From positions 62,001 to 126,000 of the forward strand of contig NZ_LSUQ01000002.1 in the NCBI RefSeq assembly GCF_001642725.1: DNA of 64,000 nt, written 5' to 3'. The notes under the pieces are model-generated. The model was not told the DNA's origin. It ran no database searches and saw only the letters and a program-made list of their open reading frames with translations. Source of the DNA: Ferroacidibacillus organovorans (GTDB lineage: Bacteria; Bacillota; Bacilli; Alicyclobacillales; SLC66). Shown piece after piece: positions 5,589-63,210 of the stretch (the first letter of the stretch is position 1; each line of letters starts with the position of its first letter). Both the position numbers and the translations under genes were made by a program.

Positions 5589-5628
5589 ATGTCCACCTCC
5601 AACTGCGTGCTTCAGATTCACCCTCTGC

Positions 5629-7446
5629 TCAAAGGTCCGCAGGGATACCTCGCCCTTCCGTGATCGCGCGGATCGTTTCAAGCGGCACCTTTGGCTTGCG
5701 ATCATACGTCAAAAGACCGTTGATCTCCTGCTCTACATCAGTCAACTGTGTATAGCAAAAACCTTGTATGACAGGAGACTCAATCATCGCAGAGACGACT
5801 GCCGCGTAACGCTGGATAAAATCATCGTCAGACTTGGCAGAGGAATAGCCCCAACCGTTCCAGTCGCTTTTTTTAAACGAAATGCCACCCATCTCCGTGA
5901 CCATGATCGGTTCACCGCGGTAGTGATACCCGGGAGAATACACCAACCGCTGTCCTGGCGTAGAGGACACGGCGACGTCAGACGATGCATAGCGCGTTTG
6001 CAGCACCTGTTTTTCACTCTCATAATCGTGAATCGTACAAAGATCTGAAACTGTGTGTTCCCAGCCATCGTTTGAGATGACCAACCGCGTCGTGTCAAGC
6101 GCTTTGGTCAGGTGATACAGCGATGTAAGATACGCCCGTTGTCGATGATCCGCAAGGAGTCCTGGTACGCCCCAGCTTTCATTCAACGGAACCCACGCAA
6201 CGATACACGGATGGTTGTAATCCCGCTCCACAGCCTGTTGCCACTCTGCAACGAGCCGCTTTACAGCCACCTCTGAATAAACGTACGTATTTGCCATTTC
6301 ACCCCATACGGTCAGACCCAACTTGTCACACCAGTAGAGGTAGCGGGGATCTTCAATCTTTTGGTGCTTTCGCGCGCCGTTAAATCCCATCGCCTTGGTC
6401 AATTCAATGTCCTGACGAATCGCCTCATCACTCGGTGGCGTCAATATACCATCGGGAAAGTACCCCTGATCGAGCACCATGCGCATGAAGTATGGCCGAT
6501 TATTGAGCATGACTTTCCCATTTTCGACCGCGATCTTGCGCAGTCCAAAGTATCCCTTGACTTGATCTACCACGCGTCCATCCGCGACAAGTGAGTAGGT
6601 GATATCATACAGGTGCGGCTGTTCAGGACTCCACGCGTGCACCGAATGATGAGCTCCCGCACTTAAACTGACACGCAAGGTGGAAGCCTCATTCGTCAGG
6701 AGGGAACGACCATGCGCGATCCGCTCTTCCCCAAAGTCAATCTCCACATGCAGTTCATAAGCAGATGTCGCAACAGTACCAAACCCTCCCAATGTCACGT
6801 TTAGGTCGATCGCCTTCTCATCGAGAAGTGGCGTGATCTTCACGCGCTCAAGATGCAGAATGGACCGTGCCTCAAGCCACACCGTTTGCCAGATGCCTGT
6901 CGTCCGTGTGTAAAAAATACTTGTCGAATGCTCTTCCCAATACTGTTTTCCGCGCGGTTGCGCGAGATCACGACTATTGTCATGCGCGCGCACGACAACT
7001 GCATTCTGCTCTGTGCGCAGCAATTCGGTGATATCCGCTGAAAATGGAGTGTGTCCACCTTCGTGCACCGCAGCGACCTCCCCATTCACCCAGACCGTCG
7101 CAGCATAATCGACCGCCCCAAAGTGCAGGATAATCCGCTTACCCGCAAAAGAGGAAGGCACCTCAACGCTTCGCCTGTACCAAACGATATCGTGAAATGA
7201 AGATTCACCGATGCCGCTTAAACGGCTTTGAAACGCAAACGGGACGGTGATTCTCTGAGAAAAAGTATGCTCGCGATGCCACCGTTCTTGTAGACCGCGA
7301 TTTTCATCATCAAACTCAAACTCCCACACGCCATTCAGATTGAGATACTCTTGTCTATAAAACTGAGGATTCGGATGTTCTGATCTTGGCATATCACTCT
7401 CAGTTAAATGCATTTCTGAGTTTCTCATCGTGGATGTCTCTGGCAT
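5629..7446 (-). CDS. GH2 glycoside hydrolase (cytoplasmic)
   Basis: LNGVWEF, LHFGAVDY, GIWQTVWLE, GFNGARKHQK, NHPCIVAWVPLNESWG, YTQLTDVEQEINGL. Confidence 0.92.
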   Translation of the reverse strand: MPETSTMRNSEMHLTESDMPRSEHPNPQFYRQEYLNLNGVWEFEFDDENRGLQERWHREHTFSQRITVPFAFQSRLSGIGESSFHDIVWYRRSVEVPSSFAGKRIILHFGAVDYAATVWVNGEVAAVHEGGHTPFSADITELLRTEQNAVVVRAHDNSRDLAQPRGKQYWEEHSTSIFYTRTTGIWQTVWLEARSILHLERVKITPLLDEKAIDLNVTLGGFGTVATSAYELHVEIDFGEERIAHGRSLLTNEASTLRVSLSAGAHHSVHAWSPEQPHLYDITYSLVADGRVVDQVKGYFGLRKIAVENGKVMLNNRPYFMRMVLDQGYFPDGILTPPSDEAIRQDIELTKAMGFNGARKHQKIEDPRYLYWCDKLGLTVWGEMANTYVYSEVAVKRLVAEWQQAVERDYNHPCIVAWVPLNESWGVPGLLADHRQRAYLTSLYHLTKALDTTRLVISNDGWEHTVSDLCTIHDYESEKQVLQTRYASSDVAVSSTPGQRLVYSPGYHYRGEPIMVTEMGGISFKKSDWNGWGYSSAKSDDDFIQRYAAVVSAMIESPVIQGFCYTQLTDVEQEINGLLTYDRKPKVPLETIRAITEGRGIPADL

Positions 7447-48157: not shown

Positions 48158-48422
48158 AATGTGCTAAGGTACGCCATGGAGTAAGGTTCGCTCCATGGCC
48201 ACCAGGTCCCTTTTTTCCAGATGTGTACTGTCGGACACGTCAAGCACACTTCATGAAGGTGTGATCACACAGACTGTGACAGCTTTTGTAAGCAAAATAG
48301 TCGACGCTCCCTTTGCCATCGATATTTTTCGGCTCTTTTCAACGGAATATGCGTGTTATTCTCCATAAAACTACAACACCTTACTCCCTACTTATGAACG
48401 TCTTATTATAGGGGTGATCCAT

Positions 48423-50399
48423 ATGGCTTCTCTCTCTTCGATGATTACATTTAAACGGTTGTCTGTAGAGAAACGCATTCTGAGTCTGATTACAACCATC
48501 ATCCTCGTCTTGCTTGTGATAGGTGCTTCCGTTTTTTATCGTAGCGTACAAGTTGTCGCAGCGCAAAAGGAAGTTTCAAACGATACCCATGTCATCGTGG
48601 ACCTAGACCAGGTGCTGATTAGTTTACTTGACATGGAGACAGGGCAACGTGGATTCCTTCTCACAGGGAATCCGGATTATCTTGCCCCATACCTTAGCGG
48701 TAAGCGCGTCATCGCAAAGAATATCGCCAATTTACGATTACGCCTCCAACAAAACAGCACATCTCCATCCCTTCTTACATCGTTGAATCAACACATCGCC
48801 AACAAAGAACGCGAACTAAAAACAACGATTCTTCTGCGGAAAAAACACGGGTTTTCGTCTTCCATACGGATTGTTGACACAAACTATGGTATCCAACAAA
48901 TGAATGAAATCCGTAAGGATCTCTCCATTTTAAGATCGATCTACTTACAACGCGTAACACAGGCACAAACCATAAGTCGTCAAGAAATGCACATTACGCT
49001 CTGGCTCATGATCATTGGAACTGTCGTATTCACATTTTTTCTATGGTTTGCGTATCGCCAAATCATCCTTGATTTACGTGCAAAACGATTGTTAACGGAA
49101 CGACTGGAACTAGAATCTAGTCATGATTCCTTGACACAGCTTCCTAATCGACGTTTTTTTCTGGATCGACTTCGCTATAGTCTCGATCTAGCCAAACGCG
49201 AAGGAGACAAACTTGCTCTGCTTTATATCGATCTCGATGGATTTAAGCCACTCAACGATGTTTTAGGTCACGCCTTTGGTGATCAGGCGCTCGTACTGGT
49301 ATCCAAACTCTTCCTTGGAGTAAAACGAGAAGGGGATGTTTTATCGCGATTAGGAGGCGACGAGTTTGCTATTCTCGCTCCACACGTAAACGATGAAAGT
49401 GAGATCACGGTGTTCGCCCAACGCTTGCTTGACGCTTTTTCTGATCCAGATATTCAACGCCTTTCTGTACGTTTGGGTGCCAGCATCGGAATCTCCTTTT
49501 TCCCTTCTGACGCGCATCGCGTTGACGATCTACTCCATGCGGCGGATGAAGCGATGTACCGTGCAAAACGATCAGGCGGACGTCAGTTCCAATTTTATCG
49601 TACCCAACTGACAGAAGAGCTAACTCGTGAACAGCGGCTGCGAAACGACTTACCCTCTGCACTAGAAAAAGGGGAAATTCAGGTATGGTACCAACCCTTT
49701 GTCAAAGCTTCAAATCAATGCATTACAGGTGCGGAGGCTCTCATTCGATGGCAACACCCGGATTTCGGTTTACTTTTACCCGGTGATTTCCTCCCGCAGG
49801 CCGAGAAAGCGGGATTACTGCCACGCATTGCTCAAGAAGTGATTCGAGTAAGCATAGCGGAACTTAAAACCTGGATTACGCTCAATCCAGATCTAACTCT
49901 TTCAATAAATTTGAGTGCGCAGGATTGCCTCTCGCCTGGTGTCATTCTATCAGCGCTTGAAACAGCACTTATCGAACATCACATTTCAGCACACCATGTA
50001 GAAATTGAGTTAACTGAGAGTTCTTTGATACGTCCAGAAGCGGATTATGTCATCCATGAGTTGCATCGTTTTGGCGTGCGACTTGCTATCGATGATTTTG
50101 GAACTGGATACGCATCACTTGAGTATTTAAGTCGGTTCCCGGTACAGAAAATTAAAATTGATCGGAGCTTTGTAAAACACTTACCTGATGACCCGTATCA
50201 TCAAAAATTGGTGCCAGCTATGGTAACAATGGCACACAGCCTCGAACTTGACGTTACAGCGGAAGGTATCGAAACCTTCGATCAGGAACAGTTCATGCAA
50301 GAGATTCAATGCGACTACTTGCAAGGCTATCGCTATGGCCGCCCCATGCAATCGACTGACTTTGTGAAAATGATCCAAACTTATCTTCCGAAGTCGTAA
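48423..50399 (+). CDS. CHASE3-GGDEF-EAL protein
   Basis: DMETGQRGFLLTG (CHASE3), two transmembrane helices, REGD I-site, GGDEF, EAL, DDFGTG. Confidence 0.93.
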   Translation: MASLSSMITFKRLSVEKRILSLITTIILVLLVIGASVFYRSVQVVAAQKEVSNDTHVIVDLDQVLISLLDMETGQRGFLLTGNPDYLAPYLSGKRVIAKNIANLRLRLQQNSTSPSLLTSLNQHIANKERELKTTILLRKKHGFSSSIRIVDTNYGIQQMNEIRKDLSILRSIYLQRVTQAQTISRQEMHITLWLMIIGTVVFTFFLWFAYRQIILDLRAKRLLTERLELESSHDSLTQLPNRRFFLDRLRYSLDLAKREGDKLALLYIDLDGFKPLNDVLGHAFGDQALVLVSKLFLGVKREGDVLSRLGGDEFAILAPHVNDESEITVFAQRLLDAFSDPDIQRLSVRLGASIGISFFPSDAHRVDDLLHAADEAMYRAKRSGGRQFQFYRTQLTEELTREQRLRNDLPSALEKGEIQVWYQPFVKASNQCITGAEALIRWQHPDFGLLLPGDFLPQAEKAGLLPRIAQEVIRVSIAELKTWITLNPDLTLSINLSAQDCLSPGVILSALETALIEHHISAHHVEIELTESSLIRPEADYVIHELHRFGVRLAIDDFGTGYASLEYLSRFPVQKIKIDRSFVKHLPDDPYHQKLVPAMVTMAHSLELDVTAEGIETFDQEQFMQEIQCDYLQGYRYGRPMQSTDFVKMIQTYLPKS

Positions 50400-50786: not shown

Positions 50787-52547
50787 ATGCTTGATTTGAT
50801 CGTGACTGAACGTCTACGAAATGCTTCTTCCCAAATGCTTACTCTTTTGATTCAAACGGTCGATATGAACACACTGTTTGTGGCAATCAATGACACAAAA
50901 ATTAACCGAATCATCACGGTATACAATCGCTCAACAGAGCTTTTAAAAGAAGGATCGTCTCCTTTTATTGAAAGCTACTGCAGCCATGTATGCAAACAAG
51001 ATAAGAACGTTTTGATCATCCCTGATACAAAGGTCAATGCTTTAACAGCAAAAATGACCATCACGAAGGATCTTGGATCGACGACCTTTATTGGCGTACC
51101 AATTGCGTTGAAAGATGGTACTAAAGTGGGGACCGTATGTGGAATAACAAAGGAAATGCACCCGTTTAGTGACACAGAAATCAATGCTCTACACGTAGCG
51201 GCTACGTTTCTTGGATATGTTTTGGAATTAGAATATACAAATTATGTTGATGAGGTTACCGGTGCGTATACACGCAGATATTTACAAGTAGTATTTGACG
51301 AAAACGTCACTAAGCAGCCTTCGATCAGCCTCCTCTATTTCGATCTTGATAATTTCAAAATGATTAACGATCACTATGGACATGATTGGGGAGATGGTGT
51401 ATTACACTCCGTAGTCGCCCGGGTAAAGGGATTCCTCCAAAATAGGGGATTACTTTTTCGATTAGGCGGAGATGAATTTGCGGTTCTCTTGCTTGATTTT
51501 TCAACCTTTGAAGAGGTGATTCCATTTGCACACGATCTCCTTCATCAATTTGATTCTCCGTTCTCTGTCAGATCTTTAGAATTCTCGATAACTCCCAGTC
51601 TTGGTATTGCACAATATCCGTATTGCAGTAACAACCTAAAGGAACTTTTAGGGCATGCTGATCAGGCCATGTATGCTGCGAAAAAAGACGGGGGAAATAG
51701 GGTTCGGTGGTACAATCCTGAAGAAGAAACAAAGCTTCAGGAAAAACTGTTTTTGCAAACGCGTTTACGGGAAGCACTTGAAAATGATATGCTGGAACTT
51801 TTTTACCAACCGAAAATTCAGATTCAAAATGGATCGATTCGATCCATGGAAGCACTTGCAAGGTGGAAGGATCAAGACGGGCTATGGATTTCTCCGGAAC
51901 GTTTTATTCCAATTGCTGAAGAGAACGAACTAATCGGGATTTTGGGGAAATGGGTATTACGAACCGCTTGTCGGCAACAAATCGAGTGGATCAAAAAAGG
52001 GCATCCGCCAATTGTGGTCTCTGTAAATGTTTCTCCTAAGCAATTTCAAATCTGCAGTATGGTGCAGATTATTCGCGATGCCATTTCTGAAACAGGTATT
52101 GATCCGAGCCATTTAGCAATTGAAATTACCGAAGGTCTACTCGTAAAAAACTCCATAGACGTTGCCGAAGAACTTAGACAGATTCGATCCTTAGGTGTAA
52201 AGATCGCGATTGATGATTTTGGTAAGGGGTATTCCTCTTTGTCATACCTGCGGTTATTCGAACCAACACATTTGAAAATTGATCAGTCGTTCATCAAGGA
52301 TATGTTGGACGATACGGGACAAATGTGCATTGTATCCGGCATCATCAACCTTGCGCACAATTTGGGAATGAAAGTCGTTGCAGAAGGCGTGGAACGTTTG
52401 GAGCAATTGGTACGTCTCGCTGAGGAGGGTTGTGATTTAATCCAGGGATACCTTATATCTCCCCCTCTACCTGTACATGAAATCGAAAGAATATCGGAGT
52501 GGCACTGGCCGTTCCCTGAAAGCAAGTCACTCGGGAATGTAAGCTAA
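50787..52547 (+). CDS. GAF-GGDEF-EAL protein
   Basis: SYC, FIGVPI..GTVCG (GAF), RLGGDEF without RxxD, EALARW, DDFGKGYSS. Confidence 0.93.
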   Translation: MLDLIVTERLRNASSQMLTLLIQTVDMNTLFVAINDTKINRIITVYNRSTELLKEGSSPFIESYCSHVCKQDKNVLIIPDTKVNALTAKMTITKDLGSTTFIGVPIALKDGTKVGTVCGITKEMHPFSDTEINALHVAATFLGYVLELEYTNYVDEVTGAYTRRYLQVVFDENVTKQPSISLLYFDLDNFKMINDHYGHDWGDGVLHSVVARVKGFLQNRGLLFRLGGDEFAVLLLDFSTFEEVIPFAHDLLHQFDSPFSVRSLEFSITPSLGIAQYPYCSNNLKELLGHADQAMYAAKKDGGNRVRWYNPEEETKLQEKLFLQTRLREALENDMLELFYQPKIQIQNGSIRSMEALARWKDQDGLWISPERFIPIAEENELIGILGKWVLRTACRQQIEWIKKGHPPIVVSVNVSPKQFQICSMVQIIRDAISETGIDPSHLAIEITEGLLVKNSIDVAEELRQIRSLGVKIAIDDFGKGYSSLSYLRLFEPTHLKIDQSFIKDMLDDTGQMCIVSGIINLAHNLGMKVVAEGVERLEQLVRLAEEGCDLIQGYLISPPLPVHEIERISEWHWPFPESKSLGNVS

Positions 52548-52624
52548 TGCAATATTTTTAGCCACATTCGTAATAATCCGGTTTTTATACGGTATATCCT
52601 TTCGTCTTTTGCAAGTAATATCCG

Positions 52625-53186
52625 CAAATGTAAGGCTACCATAAACTCAAAGCATGATTATCCGATCCATGACAATCGGTTAATAAAACGTTTATTGTTG
52701 AACCTCCTGAACATGTGTACTTTTCAACGAAGGAAACTTGGTTATTTGTTGCGAGTGTGAGGAATTTGTACAGACGAAAAATTGTTGAATGATCTGCCGC
52801 GGATTAAGTGATGATAGAGCTTATGCTTCGGGCCCTCGATTAAGCGTATGCACAACAAAGTCCAAAAGAATCTGTTATGCACCCTTCGGAATGAGGAGCA
52901 GTACATGTAGAATATCAGAAAAGAATCGAGAAAATACAATATGTTGGGAAGCGTGAGATGCAAAGACACCAGATATGATAACGCGTGCATCGAATCATTT
53001 CATAACACACTAAAACACGAATGTGTATATTTAAACACAAGTCAAACCTGAAAAGTCGCCCATTAAATATTTTTAAAATACAAAAATATTTTTACAATCG
53101 TCAGTGAACATTTTCTACAATCGGCTATGCATTACCGAATTACGATGAGAAAGTAGACGCGTGACCATTGACCGTATTGAGATCCA
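52625..53186 (+). mobile_element. Degenerate IS3-family transposase remnant
   Basis: Fragments KATINSKHDYPIHDNRL, WLFVASVRNLYRRKIV, YDNACIESFHNTLKHECVY, FYNRQ*, STIGY with stops and frameshifts. Confidence 0.8.
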
Positions 53187-53362
53187 TCCATTTGTGCTCA
53201 TAATGAAGACTTTCGGATCGTAATTCATCGTGCAGAATCGGCAACACGAGCGATGATCCTCCGCTAGTGAGCATTAGATCTGGTGCGAAATCTTAAAGAT
53301 AACTATTGCAAGAGGTATGAATATTTAGTATTCTGTGATCAATAAATCAAAAAGTAAATCGA

Positions 53363-53427
53363 TTGGGCAACGGTGCCCAACACTCCCATTGTTCTCGGAT
53401 GATGGCTGTGTTGGGCGCTGTGCGTTG
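53363..53427 (+). promoter_or_regulatory. Candidate ANTAR-target hairpin overlapping an alternative terminator-like stem
   Basis: TTGGGC-AACGGT-GCCCAA (hexaloop with A1 and G4); 53371-53383 can instead pair with 53408-53420. Confidence 0.6.
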
Positions 53428-53554
53428 TATGGGAGTCTATTCGCACGCGCGATCGGTCGCGCAGTTCACACTCGCCTCGACTCTTCAATCATACCAGCGG
53501 CCGCTCAAGGCAACGACTCGGGACTCCGAATCTAACAGAAAGAGGGGAAAAAAC

Positions 53555-55105
53555 GTGGCGCGTGACTCAGTGGAGCAGTCGAGGCATGACGAGGAAATGC
53601 TTCACAAGCTCGGGTACAGGCAAGATCTGGCGCGGGCGATGGGTGGATTTTCGAACTTTGCGATCTCATTTACCATCATCAGTATTTTGTCAGGATGTCT
53701 CACACTATTTTCCTTCGGCCTGACCAGCTCTGGTACGACTGCCGCGTCCATCGGGTGGCCGATCGTAGCCCTATGTGTGATGCCGGTGGCCATATCTATG
53801 GCAGAAATCGCATCCGCCTACCCCACGGCCGGCGGCCTCTACTATTGGGCCAGTAAACTGGGTGGGCCGGCGTGGGGCTGGTTTACAGCTTGGTTCAACT
53901 TGATTGGGCAAGTGGCGATCACCGCCGGAATTGTCTACGGTCTCTCCATCTTCGTCGATGCGCTTATCAACCAGTTCGCACCCGGCTTCCCGGCCAGCGG
54001 CCATGCTGGTGCCATCGCTACACTCGTCATCTACGCCATCATTTTGCTCGTCGGTGCGTTCATCAACTTCGCAGGCGTCAACGTCGTCTCGACCCTAAAT
54101 TCCATTAGCGCCTGGTGGCATATGATTGGCGTGGTCATCATCGTTGCAGCCGTACTGTTCTTCGCACCGATCCATCCGCATCCTTGGCACTTCGCCTACG
54201 CGACGAATCAATCATCGAGCGGCTTCCCCAACTGGTATGGGTTCCTTATCGGTCTGTTACTCGCCCAATACACATTCACTGGCTATGACGCGTCGGCTCA
54301 CGTCTCCGAGGAGACCGTCGGTGCGGACAAGAATGCGCCCCGCGGAATCATCCTGTCGGTTGCCGTGTCTGCCATCGCAGGCTATGTACTCCTGATGGGT
54401 CTAGTCTTCGCGATACCGGACCTGACCAAAACCATGGCTTCTACGAATCCGGTTCTGTACATCTTGACCACGCGTCTTGGCGTGTCAATCGGAACCACAC
54501 TCTTTATCATCGCGCTGTGTGCCCAGTTCTTCTGCGGGACCGCATCGATTACCGCAAACTCTCGCATGATCTACGCCTTTGCGCGCGATCGCGGTATTCC
54601 CGGTTGGAAGAAGTGGAGCAAGATCAACAAGGAAAAACACGTCCCCACGAACGCCATTTGGCTCGCCGTCGTCTGCGCCTTCATTCTAGCCTTGCCAGCC
54701 CTGTTCAGTACCGTGATCTACGCAGCCGTCACTTCAATCGCCACGATTGGGCTCTACGTCGCCTACGTAACGCCGGTGTTTCTTCGCCGTATCCACCCGG
54801 AACGTATGCCCCAGGGTTCGTTTCAACTCGGCAAGTGGGGTGTGTTTCTGGGTTGGTGGTCTGTCGCTTGGGTCATCTTCATATGCATTCTATTCATGCT
54901 CCCAACCGTTGGACCGGTGACGCTGTCTAACTTCAACTTTACTCCGGTGGTTCTGCTCGTCGTATTTGCCTTCCTCGTCCCTTGGTGGTTCAGTAGCGTG
55001 AAAAACTGGTTCCACGGACCGATCCGAGAGATTGACGAGGAACCGACGGTCGCGACGAATCAGTTCCAATTGCGGATGGGTGACCCGTTGAAACTTGATG
55101 AATGA
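53555..55105 (+). CDS. Amino acid/amine permease (APC, ACT/GABA-permease-like)
   Basis: LGYRQDL, FSNFAISF, SAYPTAGGLYYW, GYDASAHVSEET; GTG 53555 after GAGGGG. Confidence 0.92.
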   Translation: MARDSVEQSRHDEEMLHKLGYRQDLARAMGGFSNFAISFTIISILSGCLTLFSFGLTSSGTTAASIGWPIVALCVMPVAISMAEIASAYPTAGGLYYWASKLGGPAWGWFTAWFNLIGQVAITAGIVYGLSIFVDALINQFAPGFPASGHAGAIATLVIYAIILLVGAFINFAGVNVVSTLNSISAWWHMIGVVIIVAAVLFFAPIHPHPWHFAYATNQSSSGFPNWYGFLIGLLLAQYTFTGYDASAHVSEETVGADKNAPRGIILSVAVSAIAGYVLLMGLVFAIPDLTKTMASTNPVLYILTTRLGVSIGTTLFIIALCAQFFCGTASITANSRMIYAFARDRGIPGWKKWSKINKEKHVPTNAIWLAVVCAFILALPALFSTVIYAAVTSIATIGLYVAYVTPVFLRRIHPERMPQGSFQLGKWGVFLGWWSVAWVIFICILFMLPTVGPVTLSNFNFTPVVLLVVFAFLVPWWFSSVKNWFHGPIREIDEEPTVATNQFQLRMGDPLKLDE

Positions 55106-55120
55106 GGAGGCAACGTAGAA

Positions 55121-56605
55121 ATGGGATCTATGCAACGGTCAACAAGTCCATTGAATCTATCGAATCTCGTAGATCGCAATGCGCATTTTATCGATGGAGA
55201 GTGGGTGACGTCGACAAGCGGCGCGCTCGACGTCATCAACCCCGCAAACGGTGAGATTGTTGGCCGCGTCCCGAACGGGGGCGCGGTGCAAGCCGGAAAA
55301 GCGATCGAAGCCGCCTATCGGGCACAGCGTGAATGGGCCGCCATGACACCTGCGGAACGGGCAGTCTACATGCATGCCTGGGCCGCGCGTATCCGTGACA
55401 ACGCTGTCGAACTCGCACGAATTCTCACAAGTGAGCAGGGCAAACCCCTGTCAGAGTCTCTCGAAGAGGCGGAAGGCGCGGCGCTGTTCATCGAGTGGTA
55501 TGCGGAGGAAGGCAAGCGAGCTTATGGGGAGACCATTCCAGCGCTCGCGCGTAATAAGCGAATTCTCGTGCTTCCGCAGCCCGTCGGCGTCACAGCCCTC
55601 ATCACGCCGTGGAATTACCCAGGAACGATGGTCGCGCGCAAGGGAGCTCCGGCGCTCGCCGCCGGCTGCACTGTCGTATTAAAGCCGGCCAGCCAGACGC
55701 CACTTACTGCCGTGGCACTCGTTGCACTTGCACAGGAGGCCGGCTTTCCTGCAGGGGTCATCAACCTGGTGACGGGAAAATCGAGCGAAATTGGTGAAGA
55801 ATTTATGACGAACGCGAAGGTGCGCAAGGTGTCGTTCACGGGATCAACCGAAATCGGCAAGCTGCTCATCCGCTCATCCGCAGAGCAGGTCAAGCGTCTG
55901 TCACTTGAACTCGGCGGAAACGCACCCTTCATCGTCTTTCCGGATGCCGACCTCGATGCTGCGGTTGCGGCCGCAGTCGGCAACAAGTTTGAAAACTGTG
56001 GACAGATGTGCAATGGAATCAATGTGATATACGTGCACAAGGATGTTGCGCAAAAATTCTCGAGGAAGGTGACGCAGAGAGTTGCTAACCTCAAGGTCGG
56101 TAGCGGTCTGGAAGAGGACGTGCAACTCGGACCCGTAATTGACCACCGAGCCGTGGCGTTCGTCGACGAATTGGTCCAAGATGCCGTGCAAAAGGGCGCC
56201 AAAGTAGAAATCGGAGGCGGCTGTCTGACCGAAACGCCGTACCAGAAAGGATCGTTTTACGCGCCCACAGTCCTGACTGGCGTGACGACGGAGATGCGGA
56301 TCGCGCAGGAGGAGGTATTCGGACCCGTCGCACCCATCGTCACTTTTTCGTCGGAGGAAGAAGTTCTCGCCATGGCAAATGCCACCCCGTTCGGACTCGC
56401 CGCCTATGTGTTCACCAAGGATGTCCGACGCGTATTCGAAGTATCTGAGCAGCTTGAATTCGGCATGGTCGGCGTCAACAGCGCCTCGCTTAGTGTACCT
56501 CAGGCGCCGTTCGGCGGAATCAAGCAGAGTGGTCAAGGCCGGGAAGGCGGCCATCACGGGCTCGAAGAGTTTATGGAGATTAAGTACATCTCGCTCACAC
56601 TTTGA
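55121..56605 (+). CDS. NAD(P)-dependent aldehyde dehydrogenase (GabD/SSADH-like)
   Basis: ITPWNYP, FTGSTEIG, LELGGNAP, GQMC, EEVFGP. Confidence 0.92.
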   Translation: MGSMQRSTSPLNLSNLVDRNAHFIDGEWVTSTSGALDVINPANGEIVGRVPNGGAVQAGKAIEAAYRAQREWAAMTPAERAVYMHAWAARIRDNAVELARILTSEQGKPLSESLEEAEGAALFIEWYAEEGKRAYGETIPALARNKRILVLPQPVGVTALITPWNYPGTMVARKGAPALAAGCTVVLKPASQTPLTAVALVALAQEAGFPAGVINLVTGKSSEIGEEFMTNAKVRKVSFTGSTEIGKLLIRSSAEQVKRLSLELGGNAPFIVFPDADLDAAVAAAVGNKFENCGQMCNGINVIYVHKDVAQKFSRKVTQRVANLKVGSGLEEDVQLGPVIDHRAVAFVDELVQDAVQKGAKVEIGGGCLTETPYQKGSFYAPTVLTGVTTEMRIAQEEVFGPVAPIVTFSSEEEVLAMANATPFGLAAYVFTKDVRRVFEVSEQLEFGMVGVNSASLSVPQAPFGGIKQSGQGREGGHHGLEEFMEIKYISLTL

Positions 56606-56628
56606 TAAATCGTGAAGGGGACGCAGCG

Positions 56629-58017
56629 ATGAGAACACAAAACAGCAGGAGCACCACAGCACTCGACCATCTCGTCGAGCAGATCCGCGCGGGCGCGATT
56701 GAAACGGTCATCGTCGCCTTCTGCGACATGCAAGGGAGACTTGTTGGAAAGCGCTTGACCGGGCAGTACACACTCGACCATGTCATTGAGGACGGTATAC
56801 ACTTCTGCGTGTACCTGCTTGGAACCGATATGGAGTTGAATACGCCGCCCGGTTTCCCGGACATGGGTTGGGGACAAGGATACGGCGACTGGACCGCACG
56901 CCCGGACTGGTCGACGGTACGCACGCTTCCGTGGCACGAAAAAACGGCACTTGTTCTATCAGACGTGACCGATCACGCAGGTAACCTCATCGCAGTCGCT
57001 CCTCGCACTGTTTTGCGGCGGCAACTTGAGCGTGCGGCGAATCTCGGCTTCACCGTGAAGATAGCGTCCGAACTCGAATTTTATTTATTGGATGAGTCGT
57101 ACGACGCGGCGCACGCGAAGAACTACCAAAGCCTTGCGCTCGCTGGCACCTATTACGAGGACTATCAGCTTCTGCAGGCATCGCGCAATGAACCATTCTA
57201 CGCAAAGCTCCGTAAGCAGCTCTCTTTGGCCGGGATTCCGATTGAAGGTACAAAGGGTGAAGCCGGAGTGGCCCAGCACGAGATCAACGCCTACTATACT
57301 GACGCGTTAGAGGCCGCCGATCGACATGTACTGCTCAAGCACGGCGCGAAGGAGATCGCGATTCAAAACGGCCGTGCCGTCTCCTTCATGGCTAAACCGG
57401 ATCACTCGTGGACGGGATCGAGCAGCCATATCCACTTGAGTCTGTGGGATCAAAAGGACGTCAACGCCTTCTTTGATTCATCGTCCGACCTGCACCAGAT
57501 GTCGGACATGATGCGTCACTTCCTCGCCGGCCTGATTGTTCATATTCGCGAACTATCGTTATTGTTCGCACCCTATGTGAATTCGTACAAGCGATTCATG
57601 ACAGCGAGTTGGGCTCCAACGCACATCGTCTGGGGCGTCGACAACCGCACCTGCGGGCTGCGCGTCGTCGGACACAGCAATGGCAAGCGCATCGAGAACC
57701 GCTTCCCGGGCGCGGACACGAACCCGTATCTCGCTACCGCCGCGATGTTGGTCGCTGGACTCGACGGAATCGAAAACCGAATCGCGTTGCCTCCAGAGTG
57801 GGTCGGCAACGGTTATGTGGCGCAAGATGTCCATGCCGAGTCTCTGCCGACCTCCCTGTACGAGGCCATCCGGGCGTTCGAAACGAGCGAGTTTGCGAAA
57901 AATGCACTCGGTGAGAACGTTTATCAACACTATCTAAATGCAGCACGCGTGGAACAACGTGCTTACGACCAGGTCGTCACGAACTGGGAGAAACGGCGCT
58001 ACTTTGAGCGGGTTTAG
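56629..58017 (+). CDS. Glutamine synthetase-like gamma-glutamyl-amine ligase (GlnA4-type)
   Basis: ETVIVAFCDMQGRLVGKR, GWGQGYGD, ELEFY, SFMAKP, HIHLSLW, DNRT, IENRFPGAD. Confidence 0.88.
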   Translation: MRTQNSRSTTALDHLVEQIRAGAIETVIVAFCDMQGRLVGKRLTGQYTLDHVIEDGIHFCVYLLGTDMELNTPPGFPDMGWGQGYGDWTARPDWSTVRTLPWHEKTALVLSDVTDHAGNLIAVAPRTVLRRQLERAANLGFTVKIASELEFYLLDESYDAAHAKNYQSLALAGTYYEDYQLLQASRNEPFYAKLRKQLSLAGIPIEGTKGEAGVAQHEINAYYTDALEAADRHVLLKHGAKEIAIQNGRAVSFMAKPDHSWTGSSSHIHLSLWDQKDVNAFFDSSSDLHQMSDMMRHFLAGLIVHIRELSLLFAPYVNSYKRFMTASWAPTHIVWGVDNRTCGLRVVGHSNGKRIENRFPGADTNPYLATAAMLVAGLDGIENRIALPPEWVGNGYVAQDVHAESLPTSLYEAIRAFETSEFAKNALGENVYQHYLNAARVEQRAYDQVVTNWEKRRYFERV

Positions 58018-58129
58018 TGTGCAGCAAAGAATATGGATGCGCTTCGACTGATTTGAATAGATGTCTTACAGCCAGCAGGCACTCTGAATTAAGAAGATCC
58101 TTTAAACAGAAAAAGGGAGGCAGCCGAAC

Positions 58130-58897
58130 ATGCGATTGAAAGATAAGGTATGTGTGATCACCGGTGCAGGTGGAGGCATGGGTCTCAAAGCCGCAGAGCG
58201 ATTCGCCGAGGAAGGGGGCCGGATCGCGATCTTCGAGATAAGCGAGGCGATCGGTCAGAAAGCGGAGGAGTCTATCCGCGCGCAGGGCGGCGACGCGAAG
58301 TTTTTCGCGTGTGACGTGTCGAATGAGGGGAGTGTTAAGGTCGCAGTCGCCGCCGCGGTCGAGACGTTTGGGCGACTGGACGTGCTTTATAACAATGCGG
58401 GAATCATGCCAGAAGCGGACCACTCCGTCCTCGATACGAGCGTCGAAATGTGGGATAAGGTCATGGCTGTCAACGTACGCAGCATCTTCCTGACCTGCAA
58501 GTACGTGATCCCGCACATGCTGGAGAAAAAATCAGGATCAATCATCAACATCGCATCCTTCGTCGCGATGGTCGGTTGCAGCGTGCCGCAAGACGCGTAC
58601 ACAGCATCGAAAGGCGCTGTGATCTCGCTGACCAAGTCACTCGCTATCCAATTCCGACCGCAGGGTGTGCGTTCGAACGCAATCTGCCCTGGCCCTATCG
58701 AGACACCTCTCATGACGGAGTGGCTGCTAAAGGACGAAGAGGCCAAGCGAATCCGTCTGAACCGCCAGCCAAGCGGGCGCTTTGGCCGACCGGAAGATAT
58801 CGTCAACTGCGCGCTTTACCTCGCATCGGACGAGTCGGATTGGACAAATGGCGCGGTCATGGTCGTCGACGGCGGCATCACGAGCAACTATTTCTAG
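58130..58897 (+). CDS. SDR oxidoreductase
   Basis: TGAGGGMG, NNAG, ASFVAMVG..PQDAYTASKGAV, CPGPIETPL. Confidence 0.92.
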   Translation: MRLKDKVCVITGAGGGMGLKAAERFAEEGGRIAIFEISEAIGQKAEESIRAQGGDAKFFACDVSNEGSVKVAVAAAVETFGRLDVLYNNAGIMPEADHSVLDTSVEMWDKVMAVNVRSIFLTCKYVIPHMLEKKSGSIINIASFVAMVGCSVPQDAYTASKGAVISLTKSLAIQFRPQGVRSNAICPGPIETPLMTEWLLKDEEAKRIRLNRQPSGRFGRPEDIVNCALYLASDESDWTNGAVMVVDGGITSNYF

Positions 58898-59094
58898 CAA
58901 AGCTGAAAAGTAGCGCCGTTGGCACTCTACGCTCCCGAAAAGTCAATAGGAACGCTTACACATTTGCCACTAAATTAAACTTCCGGACCTATGAGGCTGC
59001 TCTAACAAGAAACCGTCGAAATTCCGATTAATATATTCAAAATTAACAGCGATTTAATGCTGAGAGACGATCTAACTCTAAGGAGGATCGAGAG

Positions 59095-59796
59095 ATGAAC
59101 CCTAAAGCCCGTATCCTACTAGTGGATGACGAGTCGATCGTTCGCATGGATATGCGTGAAATGCTAATGCTTGAGGGCTACGACGTTGTTGCTGAGGCGT
59201 CGAATGGCGAAACTGCCATTGAGCAGACGCTGCGCCATCAGCCGGACCTCATTGTGATGGACATTAAGATGCCGAAAATGGACGGCATCACCGCTAGCCG
59301 CATCATCGATCAAACGTGGCGCATCCCCATCCTCTTGCTTACAGCATACAACCAGTCGCAGCTTATTGATGATGCAAAGGAAGCCGGGATTTTCGGATAC
59401 TTGGTCAAGCCGATCACAGAGTTGGACCTCGCCCCGGCGATTGAAATAGCCCTCGCCCAAGCTGAGCGCCTAAGGCGGCTCATTAATGAGAAGTCAGAAC
59501 TCGAGGAGCGATTGAAGGAGCGTAAGCTGATCGAGCGGGCGAAAGGTGTGCTGATGGATCACAGCGGGAGCACGGAGGCTGAAGCCTATCAATGCATGCG
59601 CTCTCAAGCGATGAATCGGCAGGCATCACTCGCAGTGGTTGCAAAAAAGATTCTCGCTGAACACCAGCGGACGGATGCACGACGCGCATCATCCGCGCCG
59701 ATGGCGACAATGTCAGTCCCTGCGAACCGAGAACCTTCAGGACTCAACACTTTCATCAATTCCATCTTGGAAGGTGAGTTCCATGGAGAGCGTTGA
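59095..59796 (+). CDS. ANTAR-domain response regulator (EutV/PdtaR-like)
   Basis: Receiver (VDDE, MDIKMP, YLVKP) plus ANTAR ERKLIERAKGVLM...EAEAY..MR..AM. Confidence 0.94.
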   Translation: MNPKARILLVDDESIVRMDMREMLMLEGYDVVAEASNGETAIEQTLRHQPDLIVMDIKMPKMDGITASRIIDQTWRIPILLLTAYNQSQLIDDAKEAGIFGYLVKPITELDLAPAIEIALAQAERLRRLINEKSELEERLKERKLIERAKGVLMDHSGSTEAEAYQCMRSQAMNRQASLAVVAKKILAEHQRTDARRASSAPMATMSVPANREPSGLNTFINSILEGEFHGER

Positions 59797-61348
59797 CGCC
59801 AACCCCACTGCCAGCCTCATCACGTCCGTGTGCCGGACAAAATCCGACCTGAACGAGGCTGAGATCAAGGAAATCGTCCGCGTCGCCGGCCACTTGCAGA
59901 TGATGGCTGATCTCAACGGATCCGACGTGTTTATCGACTGCCTCTGGAGAGGGCGTGAAGACCAAGCTGTCGTCGTCGCTCAGGCTAAACCGGCAACTGG
60001 AAAGAGCCTCTACTCTGAGTTCATCGTCGGGCAACGCATCCTGCGCGACAACGAGCCCGGCGTCTTTTACGCTTTCCAGACCGACAAGTATGTGACTGGC
60101 ACCCGCGCCATCACGAACGAGAATGTCACGATCCAGCAGAAAATCCTGCCGATTCATGGGCCAGGCAGGAAGTCCAGAGCGACAGGCGTACTCGGCACAG
60201 GTGTCCACGCCACATCCGACACCTATGTTGGCGACACCTCCTCTACACCTGCCACCGCCTCCCCCAGTCGACTCATCGGTGTCATAATCCTCGAACAGGA
60301 CATCTCTACGCAGGTCATTCAGGAGCAAGCGGCACGCTTGTTCCAACAGACAGCGGAGGACCTCGGTGAAACCCTGTGGGAAGTCGCCGTTGCCGAGATT
60401 AACCTGCCGAGCCTTATCCATGAGGGTGTCATCCTGTGCAATTCGGAACATCTATTTACTTACATCAACCCTACAGCACGCCAATGGTTCGAGAAATTAC
60501 GGCAGCCAAGGCCAGAGATGGGCTCGCCGCTCGCATCCGTGTTTTCCGGAGTGCTAGAACATGTGCTTCAGAATGCGCACGACCGTGGCGTAGAGGCGCG
60601 CGAGTTTACCTTTGGCGACAATACCGTACTCGTGAAGGCCATCTCCATTCAACGAAAAGGAACATTTAAAGGCGGTCTGATTCTCCTCTCGGACATTACG
60701 GAACTGCGTGACAAGGAGCGTCAGCTATCCATCAAGTCGGCGGTTATAAAGGAGATCCACCATCGCGTTAAGAACAACCTTCAGACCATCTCGAGCCTGC
60801 TACGGTTGCAGATGCGGAGGACGAAATCAGAGGAGATCCGTACCGCGTTTTATGACAGCATCCACCGCATCAAAACCATCGCGCTTGTGCACCAGACGCT
60901 TTCGCAAAGCGGGATTGAGTTCGTTGAACTCCGCCAGTTGATAGAGTCCATCGCGTCGATGTTGATCCAAACCGCTGGCCATCCTGACCGAATGGTGTCG
61001 TATCGTGTAGAGGCAGACGACATTTCGCTGCCGTCAGAAAAGGCGACGCCAGTGGCATTGATTCTGAACGAACTCATTCAAAACTGTCTCGATCACGCCT
61101 TTGAACACCAAACCGCTTGCCGAATCACAGTGTCCGTGGTATATGGTGATGGCGAACTCCGATTGGTCGTTCAAGACAACGGACAAGGCTGGGATCTGCT
61201 CAAGAGCGGCGAAGCGTTAGGGACTCGCATCGTCGAAACCCTGGTGACCGAAGATTTGAGCGGCCGTATCGACTACGCGAATTGTGATGGCATGCGCGTT
61301 ACCGTGTGTCTCCCCATTCGTTGGACGACTCCTGGAATTCCCAGCTGA
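59783..61348 (+). CDS. Soluble sensor histidine kinase (EutW/PdtaS-like, HisKA_2)
   Basis: MADL..SDVFIDC, VVAQAKP, EIHHRVKNNLQ, NELIQN, DNGQG; ATG 59783 overlaps the regulator's end. Confidence 0.92.
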   Translation: MESVDANPTASLITSVCRTKSDLNEAEIKEIVRVAGHLQMMADLNGSDVFIDCLWRGREDQAVVVAQAKPATGKSLYSEFIVGQRILRDNEPGVFYAFQTDKYVTGTRAITNENVTIQQKILPIHGPGRKSRATGVLGTGVHATSDTYVGDTSSTPATASPSRLIGVIILEQDISTQVIQEQAARLFQQTAEDLGETLWEVAVAEINLPSLIHEGVILCNSEHLFTYINPTARQWFEKLRQPRPEMGSPLASVFSGVLEHVLQNAHDRGVEAREFTFGDNTVLVKAISIQRKGTFKGGLILLSDITELRDKERQLSIKSAVIKEIHHRVKNNLQTISSLLRLQMRRTKSEEIRTAFYDSIHRIKTIALVHQTLSQSGIEFVELRQLIESIASMLIQTAGHPDRMVSYRVEADDISLPSEKATPVALILNELIQNCLDHAFEHQTACRITVSVVYGDGELRLVVQDNGQGWDLLKSGEALGTRIVETLVTEDLSGRIDYANCDGMRVTVCLPIRWTTPGIPS

Positions 61349-61511
61349 ATGTCGTTACTGTAGCAAATAATCCACGTGCTATAGGTATATTTGAAATTGT
61401 CCACATGGAGTTACCATTTCGACTTGAAAGTAGGTTTATTCGGAGAAACTTAACGGAATCTTAATGGACGAACTCGTCATAGCCAAGCTACCTTGGATAG
61501 GTACAACCTGT

Positions 61512-61919
61512 TTATAATCTGTTATAGATTTCATTCTCGACAGCTTCCAACCATTCCGGCGTACCTGCAGTGATTGCTATGTGTTCAAACCAGCTGTCTT
61601 TTGTGGCACCATGCCAGTGTTTTACACCATCCTGTGTGACAATCACATCACCAGCTTTTAAGCTTTGAGCAGGCTTTCCTTCTTCCTGGTACCAACCCTC
61701 GCCACCAGTCACTAATAAAAGTTGAAACCCGTTCCGATGAATATGCCAGTTGTTTCTGCAACCAGGCTCAAAGGTTACATTCCCAACGCCAACATTCACT
61801 TGCAGATCAGCAACTAATGTTTGGAGGTAACTTTGTCCCACAAAATATTGTGCATATGCCTCATTTTTCTCTCCCACTGGAAAAATGACACCATTTTTTA
61901 CTTCTTCATATTTTGCCAT
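61512..61919 (-). CDS. Cupin domain protein
   Basis: VTFEPGCRNNWHIH, KHWHGA. Confidence 0.9.
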   Translation of the reverse strand: MAKYEEVKNGVIFPVGEKNEAYAQYFVGQSYLQTLVADLQVNVGVGNVTFEPGCRNNWHIHRNGFQLLLVTGGEGWYQEEGKPAQSLKAGDVIVTQDGVKHWHGATKDSWFEHIAITAGTPEWLEAVENEIYNRL

Positions 61920-62220
61920 TGTAAAACACCCTTTCTTCGTTTTCTGGAATGACTTCATTGACGCAAGCGAGTGCGTTCAGCGTTCTCGGAAAGCCCATAT
62001 ACGGGAGGCTATGTATAATGGCAGCGATCATGGTTTCCTTGCTATTTCCCACATTGAGGTTGCCCTGCACATGTGCCTTTACTTGCCCTTCGCAGCCTCC
62101 TAAACTGCTTACGACGCACAGTGTCAGCAACTCCCGCGTTTTCAAATCGATAATTCCTATTCTGATGTCCGATGGTTCTTCAATGCAACAAGAAACAGGG
62201 CACGATTTAAGCTGGCCCAT
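61906..62220 (-). pseudogene. Carboxymuconolactone decarboxylase family, C-terminal fragment
   Basis: DLKTRELLTL...QVKAHVQGNLNVGN...PYMGFPRTLNA; the N-terminal part does not look homologous. Confidence 0.6.
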
Positions 62221-62229
62221 TTCTTGTGT

Positions 62230-63210
62230 TCAAATTGCACCAACAACTCGATGCGGCACATAGGGCTCTTCTAAATGTGCAATTTCTTCAGATGTTAACC
62301 GAAGCGAGAGTGCGGCAACCGCATCATCAAGGTGGGAGGATTTCGTAGCGCCGATAATTGCGGCGGTGACCGGCTGTTTCTGTAACAACCACGCAAGTGC
62401 GATGTGAGCGCGGGGAACTCCATGCTTAGAAGCCAGTTCAGCCACTCGGTCTATAATGACTTGATCAGCGTCCGCCATCGCATCGTATTTCCTCTTTTGA
62501 ACTTGATCCGTTTCAGCACGATGTGTTTTTTCCCCCTGGTCCCGCGTCAATCTTCCAGATGCAAGCGGGCTATATGGAATCACACCGATCTTCTCTTCCC
62601 TGCAAAGGGGTAGCATCTCCCGTTCCTCTTCACGGTAGATGAGGTTTAGATGGTTTTGCATCGATACAAACCGAGTCCACCCGTTTTCCTCGGCGACATT
62701 CAGTGCCTTTAAAAACTGCCACGCATACATCGCAGAAGCGCCAATGTATCTTACTTTTCCTGCCTTCACCACATCATGAAGGGCTTCCATGGTTTCTTCG
62801 ATAGGCGTATTGTAATCCCAGCGATGAATCTGGTACAAATCAACGTAATCGGTTCCGAGTCTCTTGAGACTGTTGTCAATCTCCGTCATGATTGCCTTTC
62901 TTGACAGCCCAGCCCCATTTGGACCTTCATGCATCTGGAAAAAGACTTTCGTTGCGATGACAACTTCGTCTCGCTTGGCATAGTCCTTGAGTGCCCTTCC
63001 GACAAATTCTTCGCTGGTCCCATCCGAGTATACGTTGGCTGTATCGAAAAAATTGATTCCCAGATCGAGCGCCTGTTTCATAATCTGACGGCTGGTCTCT
63101 TCATCGCGTACCCACGGATGCGTCCAACGCTCCGCTACACCAAAGCCCATGCACCCAAGACAGATGCGAGATACATCCAAGCCAGTGCCTCCGAGTTTCA
63201 CATATTCCAT
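62230..63210 (-). CDS. Aldo/keto reductase (YajO-like)
   Basis: LGCMGFG, FDTANVYS, YQIHRWD, PYSPLASG. Confidence 0.93.
   Translation of the reverse strand: MEYVKLGGTGLDVSRICLGCMGFGVAERWTHPWVRDEETSRQIMKQALDLGINFFDTANVYSDGTSEEFVGRALKDYAKRDEVVIATKVFFQMHEGPNGAGLSRKAIMTEIDNSLKRLGTDYVDLYQIHRWDYNTPIEETMEALHDVVKAGKVRYIGASAMYAWQFLKALNVAEENGWTRFVSMQNHLNLIYREEEREMLPLCREEKIGVIPYSPLASGRLTRDQGEKTHRAETDQVQKRKYDAMADADQVIIDRVAELASKHGVPRAHIALAWLLQKQPVTAAIIGATKSSHLDDAVAALSLRLTSEEIAHLEEPYVPHRVVGAI

Follow-up and report, generated by a model that had tools for sequence, protein, structure and literature searches.

In a stretch of 64,000 nucleotides from the acidophilic soil bacterium Ferroacidibacillus organovorans (contig NZ_LSUQ01000002.1, positions 62,001 to 126,000; hereafter the window) six genes of the plus strand appear to form an operon for the vitamin B12-free gamma-glutamylation of ethanolamine or of an amino alcohol close to it, under the control of a two-component pair of the EutV/EutW family that acts through an antiterminator containing a single hexaloop. 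We put the probability of this reading at roughly 0.6. The operon is most likely substrate-inducible, works without a microcompartment and serves the use of a small primary amino alcohol, with ethanolamine as the first choice; that ethanolamine is both the substrate and the signal of the kinase we only infer. The catabolic route has already been described; what is new is that it is linked, in a conserved manner, to a two-component ANTAR switch of the family in charge of classical eut operons.

In the scheme that we propose the permease would import the amine, the glutamine synthetase (GS)-like ligase would couple it to glutamate at the expense of ATP, the short-chain dehydrogenase/reductase (SDR) would turn the hydroxyl group into an aldehyde, and the aldehyde dehydrogenase would yield a gamma-glutamyl acid, that is, gamma-glutamylglycine if the substrate is ethanolamine. 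An unlinked hydrolase would then free glutamate and glycine. Transcription would begin at a conserved promoter and would normally halt at a very stable hairpin in the leader. On sensing its signal the soluble kinase of the EutW/PdtaS family would phosphorylate the ANTAR regulator, which would bind a small hexaloop hairpin; the 3' arm of this hairpin would thereby be lost to the terminator, so that polymerase would read through. The genes, and the block in which they lie, are as follows.

53222..61356, no strand assigned: block common to a genome of the same genus, G046 (blastn, 91% identity), the flanks differing on both sides
53555..55105, plus strand: amino acid-polyamine-organocation (APC)-family permease, 516 residues [Pfam AA_permease_2, 3e-59]
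55121..56605, plus strand: aldehyde dehydrogenase, GabD/SSADH-like by sequence [Pfam Aldedh, 3e-171]
56602..58017, plus strand: GS-like ATP-dependent gamma-glutamyl ligase, Csal_0679/GlnA4 type [Pfam Gln-synt_C, 1e-102]
58130..58897, plus strand: SDR, presumed gamma-glutamyl-amino-alcohol dehydrogenase [Pfam adh_short_C2, 4e-68]
59095..59796, plus strand: response regulator with ANTAR RNA-binding domain [Pfam Response_reg, 9e-29; ANTAR, 6e-17]
59783..61348, plus strand: soluble histidine kinase, EutW/PdtaS family, with a PAS-like region [GAF_PdtaS, 8e-29; HisKA_2, 2e-24; HATPase_c, 1e-9]

A check of the open reading frames (ORFs) together with a Pfam scan recovered all six plus-strand frames where a preliminary description of this DNA had placed them, and their families agree. 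The GTG at 53555 chosen there as the permease start is preceded by a good ribosome-binding site, AAGAGGGG. ATG 59783, behind the putative ribosome-binding site GGAAGGTGAG, is the likelier start of the kinase and gives 521 residues and a 14-nt overlap with the end of the regulator gene, and the start codon of the ligase is ambiguous by about nine codons. The motifs quoted earlier for the ligase (DMQGRLVGKR, GWGQGYGD) and for the SDR (PQDAYTASKG) are present, and the SDR carries in addition TGxxxGxG and YxxxK. The functional unit reaches upstream of 53555, with a promoter-like site and leader at about 53306–53427. The genome carrying the window (3.03 Mb, 98 contigs, 96.8% complete) has three GS-family genes and one ANTAR protein. 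The lack of eutBC and shell genes, pointed out for the window, extends to this genome, in which no match to EutB, EutC or bacterial microcompartment (BMC) shell proteins was found.

The source databases name the ligase “glutamine synthetase,” so that the pathway is hidden in the annotation. By sequence, the solved proteins nearest to it are a GS-like protein of Brucella melitensis [6e-122, 11zs] and Csal_0679 [5e-121, 5dm3], the latter identified through its PDB title, [quoted passage not shown] Other types of the GS fold are more distant: the best true GS scores 6e-58, GmaS 4e-47 and the PA5508 type 3e-20. An AlphaFold model of the ligase (pLDDT 77.6) again has 5dm3 as its top fold match (Z 43.1, rmsd 2.1 over 366 residues, 44% identity); identity to Csal_0679 ranges from 44 to 50%. 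All NCBIfam equivalog scores are below their cut-offs, namely 272 bits against 470 for type III GS, 240 against 429 for GlnA and 229 against 650 for PuuA (NF045547), and the ligase shares 31% identity with the Escherichia coli PuuA of the annotated K-12 record. The ligase thus groups with Csal_0679, far from true GS, GmaS and PuuA, and is predicted to glutamylate ethanolamine. Its membership of the GlnA4 type, proposed in the preliminary description, is judged through Csal_0679 and not through the GlnA4 sequence itself. The gene for Csal_0679 presumably adjoins that of an ethanolamine-binding protein of a tripartite ATP-independent periplasmic (TRAP) transporter.

The route from ethanolamine through gamma-glutamylethanolamide, its aldehyde and gamma-glutamylglycine to glycine plus glutamate has been reported in Chromohalobacter/Agrobacterium, Phaeobacter MED193 and Streptomyces, as outlined in PMC10132767 and PMC6529630. 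Ligase, alcohol-oxidising SDR, aldehyde dehydrogenase and transporter match this published scheme, as had been suggested from the sequence. The label “actinobacterial-style,” applied at the same time, is too restrictive: many Chloroflexota and members of other phyla have the ligase-SDR-permease core, and the route was first described in Proteobacteria.

Among solved proteins the aldehyde dehydrogenase matches 8s33 [5e-162] and E. coli GabD [2e-158, 3jz4], and it scores 608 bits against the succinate-semialdehyde dehydrogenase (SSADH) model, the cut-off of which is 646. The permease falls into the TIGR00907 subfamily (361 bits, under the cut-off). A homologue 42.5% identical over 510 residues occurs in genome G212 between an ANTAR gene and eutB, behind an EutW-type kinase, and offers independent support, from a single locus, for ethanolamine as the substrate of this permease type; here the permease subfamily of the window serves the classical eut pathway. 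That locus (L243; G212:C57, 10–4456) contains, in this order, the EutW-type kinase, the ANTAR regulator, a small membrane-peptide ORF, the APC permease and EutB.

As to the last step, a PuuD-like hydrolase was found in the clusters of only two relatives, G034 and G018, and in six of 80 distant ligase loci. In G034 this Peptidase_C26 gene lies between the SDR and ANTAR genes (L117, G034:C1, 5909–6664, minus strand), and in G018 it stands upstream of the aldehyde dehydrogenase gene (L124, about 5138–5830). In these two clusters it probably supplies the hydrolytic step for which the window has no linked gene. Alicyclobacillus cycloheptanicus, a cultured species, likewise possesses the complete set together with the hydrolase. 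The genome of the window does encode one strong PuuD-like protein, on another contig, which is 34% identical to that of the G034 cluster.

We surveyed 64 genomes of the order to which the window belongs (cut-offs E ≤ 1e-100 for the ligase and E ≤ 1e-20 for the kinase). The ligase occurs in ten, the genome of the window (G000) included, and the kinase in nine, the match in G036 covering the C-terminal 145 residues only. ANTAR proteins were found in eight genomes (G000, G046, G056, G057, G058, G021, G034 and G040), and these are exactly the genomes which possess kinase and ligase together. The ANTAR matches share a contig with the kinase of the cluster, except for a second partial match in G056, on C278; the ANTAR gene of G056 is truncated by a contig end. 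Each of the six genomes checked has one ANTAR gene. G044 and G018 have the ligase and lack both ANTAR and kinase. EutB was not found in any of the five cluster-bearing relatives tested.

The gene order is permease, aldehyde dehydrogenase, ligase, SDR, ANTAR regulator, kinase in G000 and G046. It is the same in G034, with the hydrolase inserted, and in G021, of the Alicyclobacillus curvatus type, where the aldehyde dehydrogenase is a frameshifted C-terminal remnant (residues 408–494; L118, G021:C1, 8412–8673, minus strand) between permease and ligase. In G056–58 the order is ANTAR, aldehyde dehydrogenase, ligase, SDR, kinase, permease, and in G040 it is ANTAR, kinase, permease, aldehyde dehydrogenase, ligase, SDR. 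The set of six gene families stays together through four gene orders, and it is because the set is retained through rearrangement that we argue for a functional tie; the eight ANTAR-bearing clusters are related, so that these counts are not independent events. The G046 kinase gene is split into two frames by a deletion at about 11490 of L116 (G046:C2), within the invariant NEPGVF stretch of the sensor domain; the gene is a pseudogene, or else the assembly is wrong here.

More distant ligase loci were collected with an alignment scan taking one genome per species over 12 of the 64 parts of the collection. The 80 loci kept were mostly from Chloroflexota; the scan missed the closest relatives, many of the loci are short, and neighbours were counted within 9 kb of the ligase. 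An SDR 62–74% identical to that of the window was near the ligase in 45 of these loci (57 if any SDR match is counted), a permease in 44, and an aldehyde dehydrogenase (32–40% identity) in 30. The kinase was near the ligase in none of the 80, and in four the regulator gave matches no longer than a receiver domain. The enzymes thus form a widespread core, which elsewhere comes without this regulator.

The regulator aligned over its full length with Mycobacterium tuberculosis PdtaR, the best solved match [1.5e-46, 1s8n], and with Enterococcus faecalis EutV [1.4e-42, 6wsh]. In EutV the hexaloop is contacted by Tyr164, Arg142, Lys149, Glu160, Lys143 and Met172, and the phosphate acceptor is Asp54, according to the structural account in PMC8934654. 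Counted by hand on the alignment, all six contact residues are kept (R143, K144, K150, E161, Y165 and M173), as is the acceptor, D56 corresponding to EutV D54. On this evidence the regulator has the make-up of an EutV-type protein of receiver and ANTAR domains, and is likely to bind RNA.

Its candidate target lies in the leader, for which we recognised the following elements.

53306..53334, plus strand: promoter-like site TTGCAA-17 nt-TATTCT, read from the sequence and below the level of the promoter scan
53352..53359, plus strand: conserved unpaired block, AAGTAAAT in the window and AAGTGAAT in most relatives
53363..53380, plus strand: hexaloop hairpin TTGGGC-AACGGT-GCCCAA with A1 and G4 in the loop, candidate ANTAR site/antiterminator and counterpart of the EutV-target P2
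53370..53421, plus strand: long terminator-like hairpin, fold of -34.2 kcal/mol, z -6.4, the outer stem 95% paired across eight sequences
53447..53462, plus strand: second hexaloop hairpin GCGCG-ATCGGT-CGCGC, downstream of the terminator

The promoter-like site is kept in four genomes, those of the window, G046, G034 (TTGCCA/TATCCT) and G021 (TTGTCA/TATCAT). The unpaired block stands 5–7 nt upstream of the GGGC/GAGC stem, at the place of the canonical first ANTAR hairpin (P1), and the RNA upstream of the small hairpin is short, A-rich and unpaired. Across the clusters the small hairpin has 4–6 base pairs and reads GGGC-AAYGGY-GCCC, with A1 and G4 in the hexaloop. The 5' arm of the long hairpin is made of five of the six hexaloop bases (53370–53374) and the 3' arm of the small hairpin; the two are mutually exclusive RNA structures. 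In the consensus of the clusters the long hairpin ends with GT(T)GGGCGC, followed by a T-rich tail. The second hexaloop was considered as a partner hairpin and rejected, being downstream of the terminator and not conserved; G046 has a mismatch in the closing pair, and the hairpin is therefore confined to the genome of the window.

The leader motif occurs once per cluster in all eight ANTAR-bearing clusters, always before the first catabolic gene. It was found in neither of the two Alicyclobacillales ligase clusters that lack ANTAR, in none of the 80 distant ligase loci and in none of 109 distant kinase loci. Whole-genome pattern searches of six genomes gave in each a single motif outside coding sequence. 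In the genome of the window the motif occurs once, and searches allowing one mismatch gave 9 and 7 matches where the reversed control gave 6 and 6. We rejected the idea of a larger ANTAR regulon based upon extra copies, since the exact extra matches, in G034 and G021, lie within coding sequence and have no terminator.

The pairing itself is well conserved. For the small hairpin 100% of the alignment cells pair, against at most 75% when the partners are slid, and for the outer stem of the terminator 95% against at most 54%. G040 has A-U for G-C at one pair, changed in all three strands involved, and between G056 and G057 there is a compensatory change from C-G to U-A further down the long stem. 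For all seven distinct sequences the terminator folds with energies between -25.7 and -41.4 kcal/mol (z between -5.9 and -8.2), which none of 200 shuffles equalled. Deeper in the long stem the lineages have unrelated sequences, and still the two sides pair in every case. A T-tract after the long hairpin is good in G034, G056–58 and G040 and poor in G000, G046 and G021. An Rfam scan of 52000–62500 with E up to 1 returned as its sole match CRISPR-DR47 (E 0.26), which we judge to be due to chance.

Relatives of the kinase at 50% identity or more are few: Alicyclobacillus cycloheptanicus, A. curvatus, Thermoflavifilum, Melghirimyces and unnamed Bacilli. Below this group, at about 39% identity, come many kinases named “PdtaS,” from Paenibacillus, Brevibacillus, Cohnella and Parageobacillus. 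In a sample of the phylum (401 family-balanced genomes, E ≤ 1e-40) 29 other genomes had a kinase match; 20 of the 29 have EutB, and in all 20 the kinase and EutB genes share a contig at a distance, read from the coordinates, of 0.8–4.3 kb. The window's own kinase has no such eutBC linkage, EutB not having been found in its genome. All ten eut-linked kinases scanned contain GAF_PdtaS, HisKA_2 and HATPase_c, as does the kinase of the window. Because eut-linked kinases carry GAF_PdtaS too, the EutW and PdtaS types are one family, and we dropped the notion that the kinase is PdtaS-like and hence not EutW-like. Similarity to the structure of the PdtaS sensor extends over 70 residues only [2.4e-8, 2ykf]. 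Between the GAF and PAS-like regions the kinase has a stretch rich in Gly, Ser, Thr and Pro (residues about 126–163, window about 60160–60275), which belongs to the part of the query left unaligned in the matches from G034, G021, G056–58 and G040.

A maximum-likelihood tree of 46 kinases, rooted at the midpoint, was built from 15 of the 16 matches at 50% identity or more (the truncated P0138 was left out), 17 sequences picked by hand from the 39% group, ten of the 20 eut-linked and four of the nine non-eut kinases. The ligase-linked kinases form a clade of their own (support 100/100), their linkage being verified for the members in the eight ANTAR genomes only. This clade is sister to one of the Paenibacillus/Brevibacillus type (union 100/98), and the eut-linked rows fall outside the pair, with no firm branching order there. 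No member of the sister clade itself was present in the sampled genomes; one of them, P0173, matches kinases in 17 sampled genomes (E ≤ 1e-75), all 17 being full-length matches to eut-linked kinases at 37–48% identity. Over the same 112 residues the N-terminal sensor of the window's kinase is 39% identical to that of a eut-linked kinase and 41% to that of P0173. The 109 distant kinase loci comprised 80 from a metagenome scan (two of 64 parts; relatives of 43% identity or less) and the 29 from the phylum search. A ligase was near the kinase in none of the 109, and EutB was present in three of the 80 metagenome loci. The control of the operon had been described as EutVW-like. The part that stands is the architecture, as kinase and REC-ANTAR regulator match the eutB-adjacent pairs (ten of ten kinases); the part that must be qualified is the ancestry of the kinase, the clade of which is distinct from the eut-linked ones.

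Several of our observations weigh against an ethanolamine operon under ANTAR antitermination. On the enzymatic side, the dehydrogenase is GabD-like and 34% identical to PuuC, so that its role on a gamma-glutamyl aldehyde is assigned from context alone; its substrate is presumed to be the gamma-glutamyl-amino-aldehyde. The permease does not belong with the Eat ethanolamine permeases, as its TIGR00908 score of 52 bits is far under the cut-off of 381.75. A gamma-glutamyl hydrolase gene was not found in the cluster of the window nor an FGase-family protein in its genome, of which the sole strong PuuD-like protein is encoded beside adenosylhomocysteinase. The separation of the ligase-linked kinases from the eut-linked ones means that their signal could differ. 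The system also decays in places: the kinase of G046 has a 1-nt deletion, and G021 retains only a remnant of the aldehyde dehydrogenase. On the side of the RNA, true covariation comes from a single lineage and is statistically weak (65 of 500 shuffles reach it), the U-tract of the window is poor (TGTGCGTTG, the tail 53422–53427 being weakly U-rich), and the terminator scan called no plus-strand terminator at the leader. One would also have expected a P1. Published ANTAR targets have two A1/G4 hexaloop hairpins 2–25 nt apart, with P2 in the left arm of the terminator, as set out in PMC3369931 and PMC8164766, and the deletion experiment given in PMC3369931 abolished EutV induction, P1 being needed in vivo. 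No second A1/G4 hexaloop with a stem of at least 3 bp was found within 25 nt in the seven distinct leaders, using a scanner that had no successful positive control. On the eut loci of G348 and G212 neither the scanner nor the eye found a clean canonical hexaloop pair, and the absence of P1 is therefore taken from direct reading of the leaders.

A later account, PMC8934654, reduces the minimal ANTAR site to one hexaloop and suggests that P1 is bound first and P2 after it. Our conserved candidate antiterminator, with its single hexaloop and an unpaired block at fixed distance, fits this revision, and the literature searched held no description of such an element. One may go further and suppose that an EutW/EutV-type ethanolamine module has been re-targeted from the eut operon to gamma-glutamylation, the single hexaloop and the unpaired AAGUGAAU block, in place of P1, recruiting the regulator dimer. 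This narrower proposal is tentative, and we would give it somewhat less than even odds. Were it true, the leader would give the first example from nature of a “minimal single-hexaloop” ANTAR site at work in the course of transcription.

Of the other explanations the one that survives best keeps both the pathway logic and the switch and replaces ethanolamine, as substrate and signal, by another small amine such as 3-aminopropanol, 4-aminobutanol, alaninol or serinol. The enzyme functions are predicted here from sequence, the ligase is just 44–50% identical to Csal_0679, and the kinase clade and the GabD-like rather than PuuC-like dehydrogenase would suit such a substrate equally. Moreover the aldehyde dehydrogenases of the distant ligase loci are only 32–40% identical to that of the window, and this step is therefore filled by different enzymes. 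Against it, the nearest solved relative of the ligase is the Chromohalobacter protein with its presumed ethanolamine context, a permease homologue sits in the eut operon of G212, and those near relatives of the kinase whose context is known are eut-linked. A primary amino alcohol would account for the need for both an alcohol and an aldehyde dehydrogenase, and no compound of this class is commoner than ethanolamine. We regard a different amine as unlikely, though as a serious contender.

A second explanation accepts the enzymes and denies the switch: the leader would attenuate transcription constitutively or under some other control, the ANTAR pair would have its targets elsewhere or work on translation, and the co-occurrence would reflect the common inheritance of one mobile block. 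The single hexaloop without P1, the weak covariation, the relatedness of the eight clusters and the weak U-tract in three of five lineages as counted (G000/G046, G021) speak for it. It does not account for a motif that travels with the first catabolic gene through all four gene orders, is missing from the two related clusters without ANTAR, and is matched in six of six genomes by exactly one ANTAR protein and one non-coding leader. Nor does it explain why A1 and G4 persist in the loop and, in the regulator, the residues that contact them in EutV; and a single hexaloop is in itself the minimal site as published (PMC8934654). We hold this explanation to be improbable. Least probable is a Puu-like pathway for a polyamine such as putrescine, which would share GS-like ligase, aldehyde dehydrogenase and APC permease with E. 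coli puuP-puuA-puuC and the PuuD-like hydrolase with the G034 cluster, since the ligase scores far under the PuuA cut-off, the dehydrogenase is 34% identical to PuuC, and in the cluster a PuuB-type oxidase or aminotransferase was not found, an SDR needless for a diamine route standing instead.

Returning to the amino alcohol operon and its surroundings, base composition does not support a recent acquisition of the block. Its GC content is 0.552 against a genome mean of 0.520, and 334 of 2296 8-kb windows are equal or higher. A horizontally acquired island had seemed conceivable from local GC (flanks 0.41–0.47, inside about 0.56) and was rejected, as the block is within the range of the genome's 8-kb windows; the local contrast arises because the GGDEF-EAL genes upstream are AT-rich (GC at third codon positions 0.40–0.41 against 0.62–0.71 in the cluster). 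The patchy distribution in the order suggests transfer or loss of the cluster. The two GGDEF-EAL genes are in tandem on the plus strand (48414–50399 and 50787–52547), CHASE3 being found in one and a weak GAF in the other; they are not at the corresponding place in G046, and it is this pair, rather than the amine cluster, that looks like a compositional outlier. A plus-strand frame of 46 residues (52911–53051, ending DNACIESFHNTLKHECVYLNTSQT) gave a sub-threshold match to rve_3 (E 4.9e-4, 20.2 bits against 26.5) and, being just upstream of the shared block, is possibly an insertion sequence remnant. Downstream is a minus-strand cupin gene (61512–61958; 112.9 bits against an NCBIfam cut-off of 140 for (R)-mandelonitrile lyase), followed by two aldo-keto reductase genes on the same strand. 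DNA nearly identical to 53222–58000 was present in metagenome runs (mine drainage, sediment and “metagenome”), with shares of 0.83–0.90 in three studies other than the likely source; no RNA run was among the matches listed.

The preliminary description had considered the combination of this pathway with this regulator to be undescribed. The pairing proves to be conserved in eight genomes, and in the literature searched (subscription journals and bioRxiv supplements were outside reach) we found no description of ANTAR control of the gamma-glutamylation/GlnA4 route. The supplementary hit tables of PMC3369931 contain 25 “glutamine synthetase” rows, among them one from Alkaliphilus, in which the genes for GS and for an ANTAR regulator adjoin, and one from Caldicellulosiruptor; Alicyclobacillus, aldehyde dehydrogenase and amino acid permease do not appear in those tables. 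In PMC8164766 the sole mention of “gamma-glutamyl” is in a reference cited for putrescine catabolism. If the kinase senses ethanolamine, one sensor family would govern two biochemically unrelated solutions to the use of one nutrient, and the small ligase-linked clade would be a useful comparison set in the search for where EutW-type kinases bind their ligand. The leader offers a compact, natural test case for the proposal that one hexaloop is the minimal site, and with one regulator, one site and one operon per genome it lends itself to simple genetics and in vitro transcription.

Among known systems, the E. coli Puu pathway (PuuP-PuuA-PuuD-PuuC-PuuB) shares the order of events, that is, gamma-glutamylation of an amine, oxidation and hydrolysis. 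It differs in the ligase (31% identity), the dehydrogenase (34%), the PuuB oxidase in the place of the SDR, and its repressor, PuuR. M. tuberculosis PdtaS/PdtaR resembles our pair, PdtaR being the best match of the regulator and the kinase having GAF_PdtaS; there, unlike here, the genes are unlinked and the targets act at translation, and the signals reported are cyclic di-GMP, copper, nitric oxide and iron.

The GlnA4 cluster of Streptomyces coelicolor (SCO1610–SCO1615), compared without the GlnA4 sequence, has the same predicted route, and other Streptomyces have an amino-acid-type permease beside the ligase, as described in PMC6529630. Unlike the window, the S. coelicolor cluster has a DNA-binding repressor, EpuRI, and a linked FGase-type amidohydrolase, SCO1615. 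The Eto cluster of C. salexigens, Agrobacterium tumefaciens and Phaeobacter sp. MED193 is likewise composed of a GS-like ligase with alcohol and aldehyde dehydrogenases, and does without B12 or a shell. Its TRAP transporter, RpiR-type regulator and linked gamma-glutamylglycine amidohydrolase, as presented in PMC10132767, are replaced in the window by an APC permease and an ANTAR two-component switch, with no linked hydrolase.

With EutW/EutV of E. faecalis the likeness is one of control: kinase architecture, REC-ANTAR regulator, hexaloop-contact residues, and an A1/G4 hexaloop in the left arm of a terminator. The E. faecalis pair is directed at eutBC and microcompartment genes through four terminators, with adenosylcobalamin as a further input. 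In the window, by contrast, a kinase of a separate clade faces one operon of a different pathway behind one leader, in which the unpaired block takes the place of P1.

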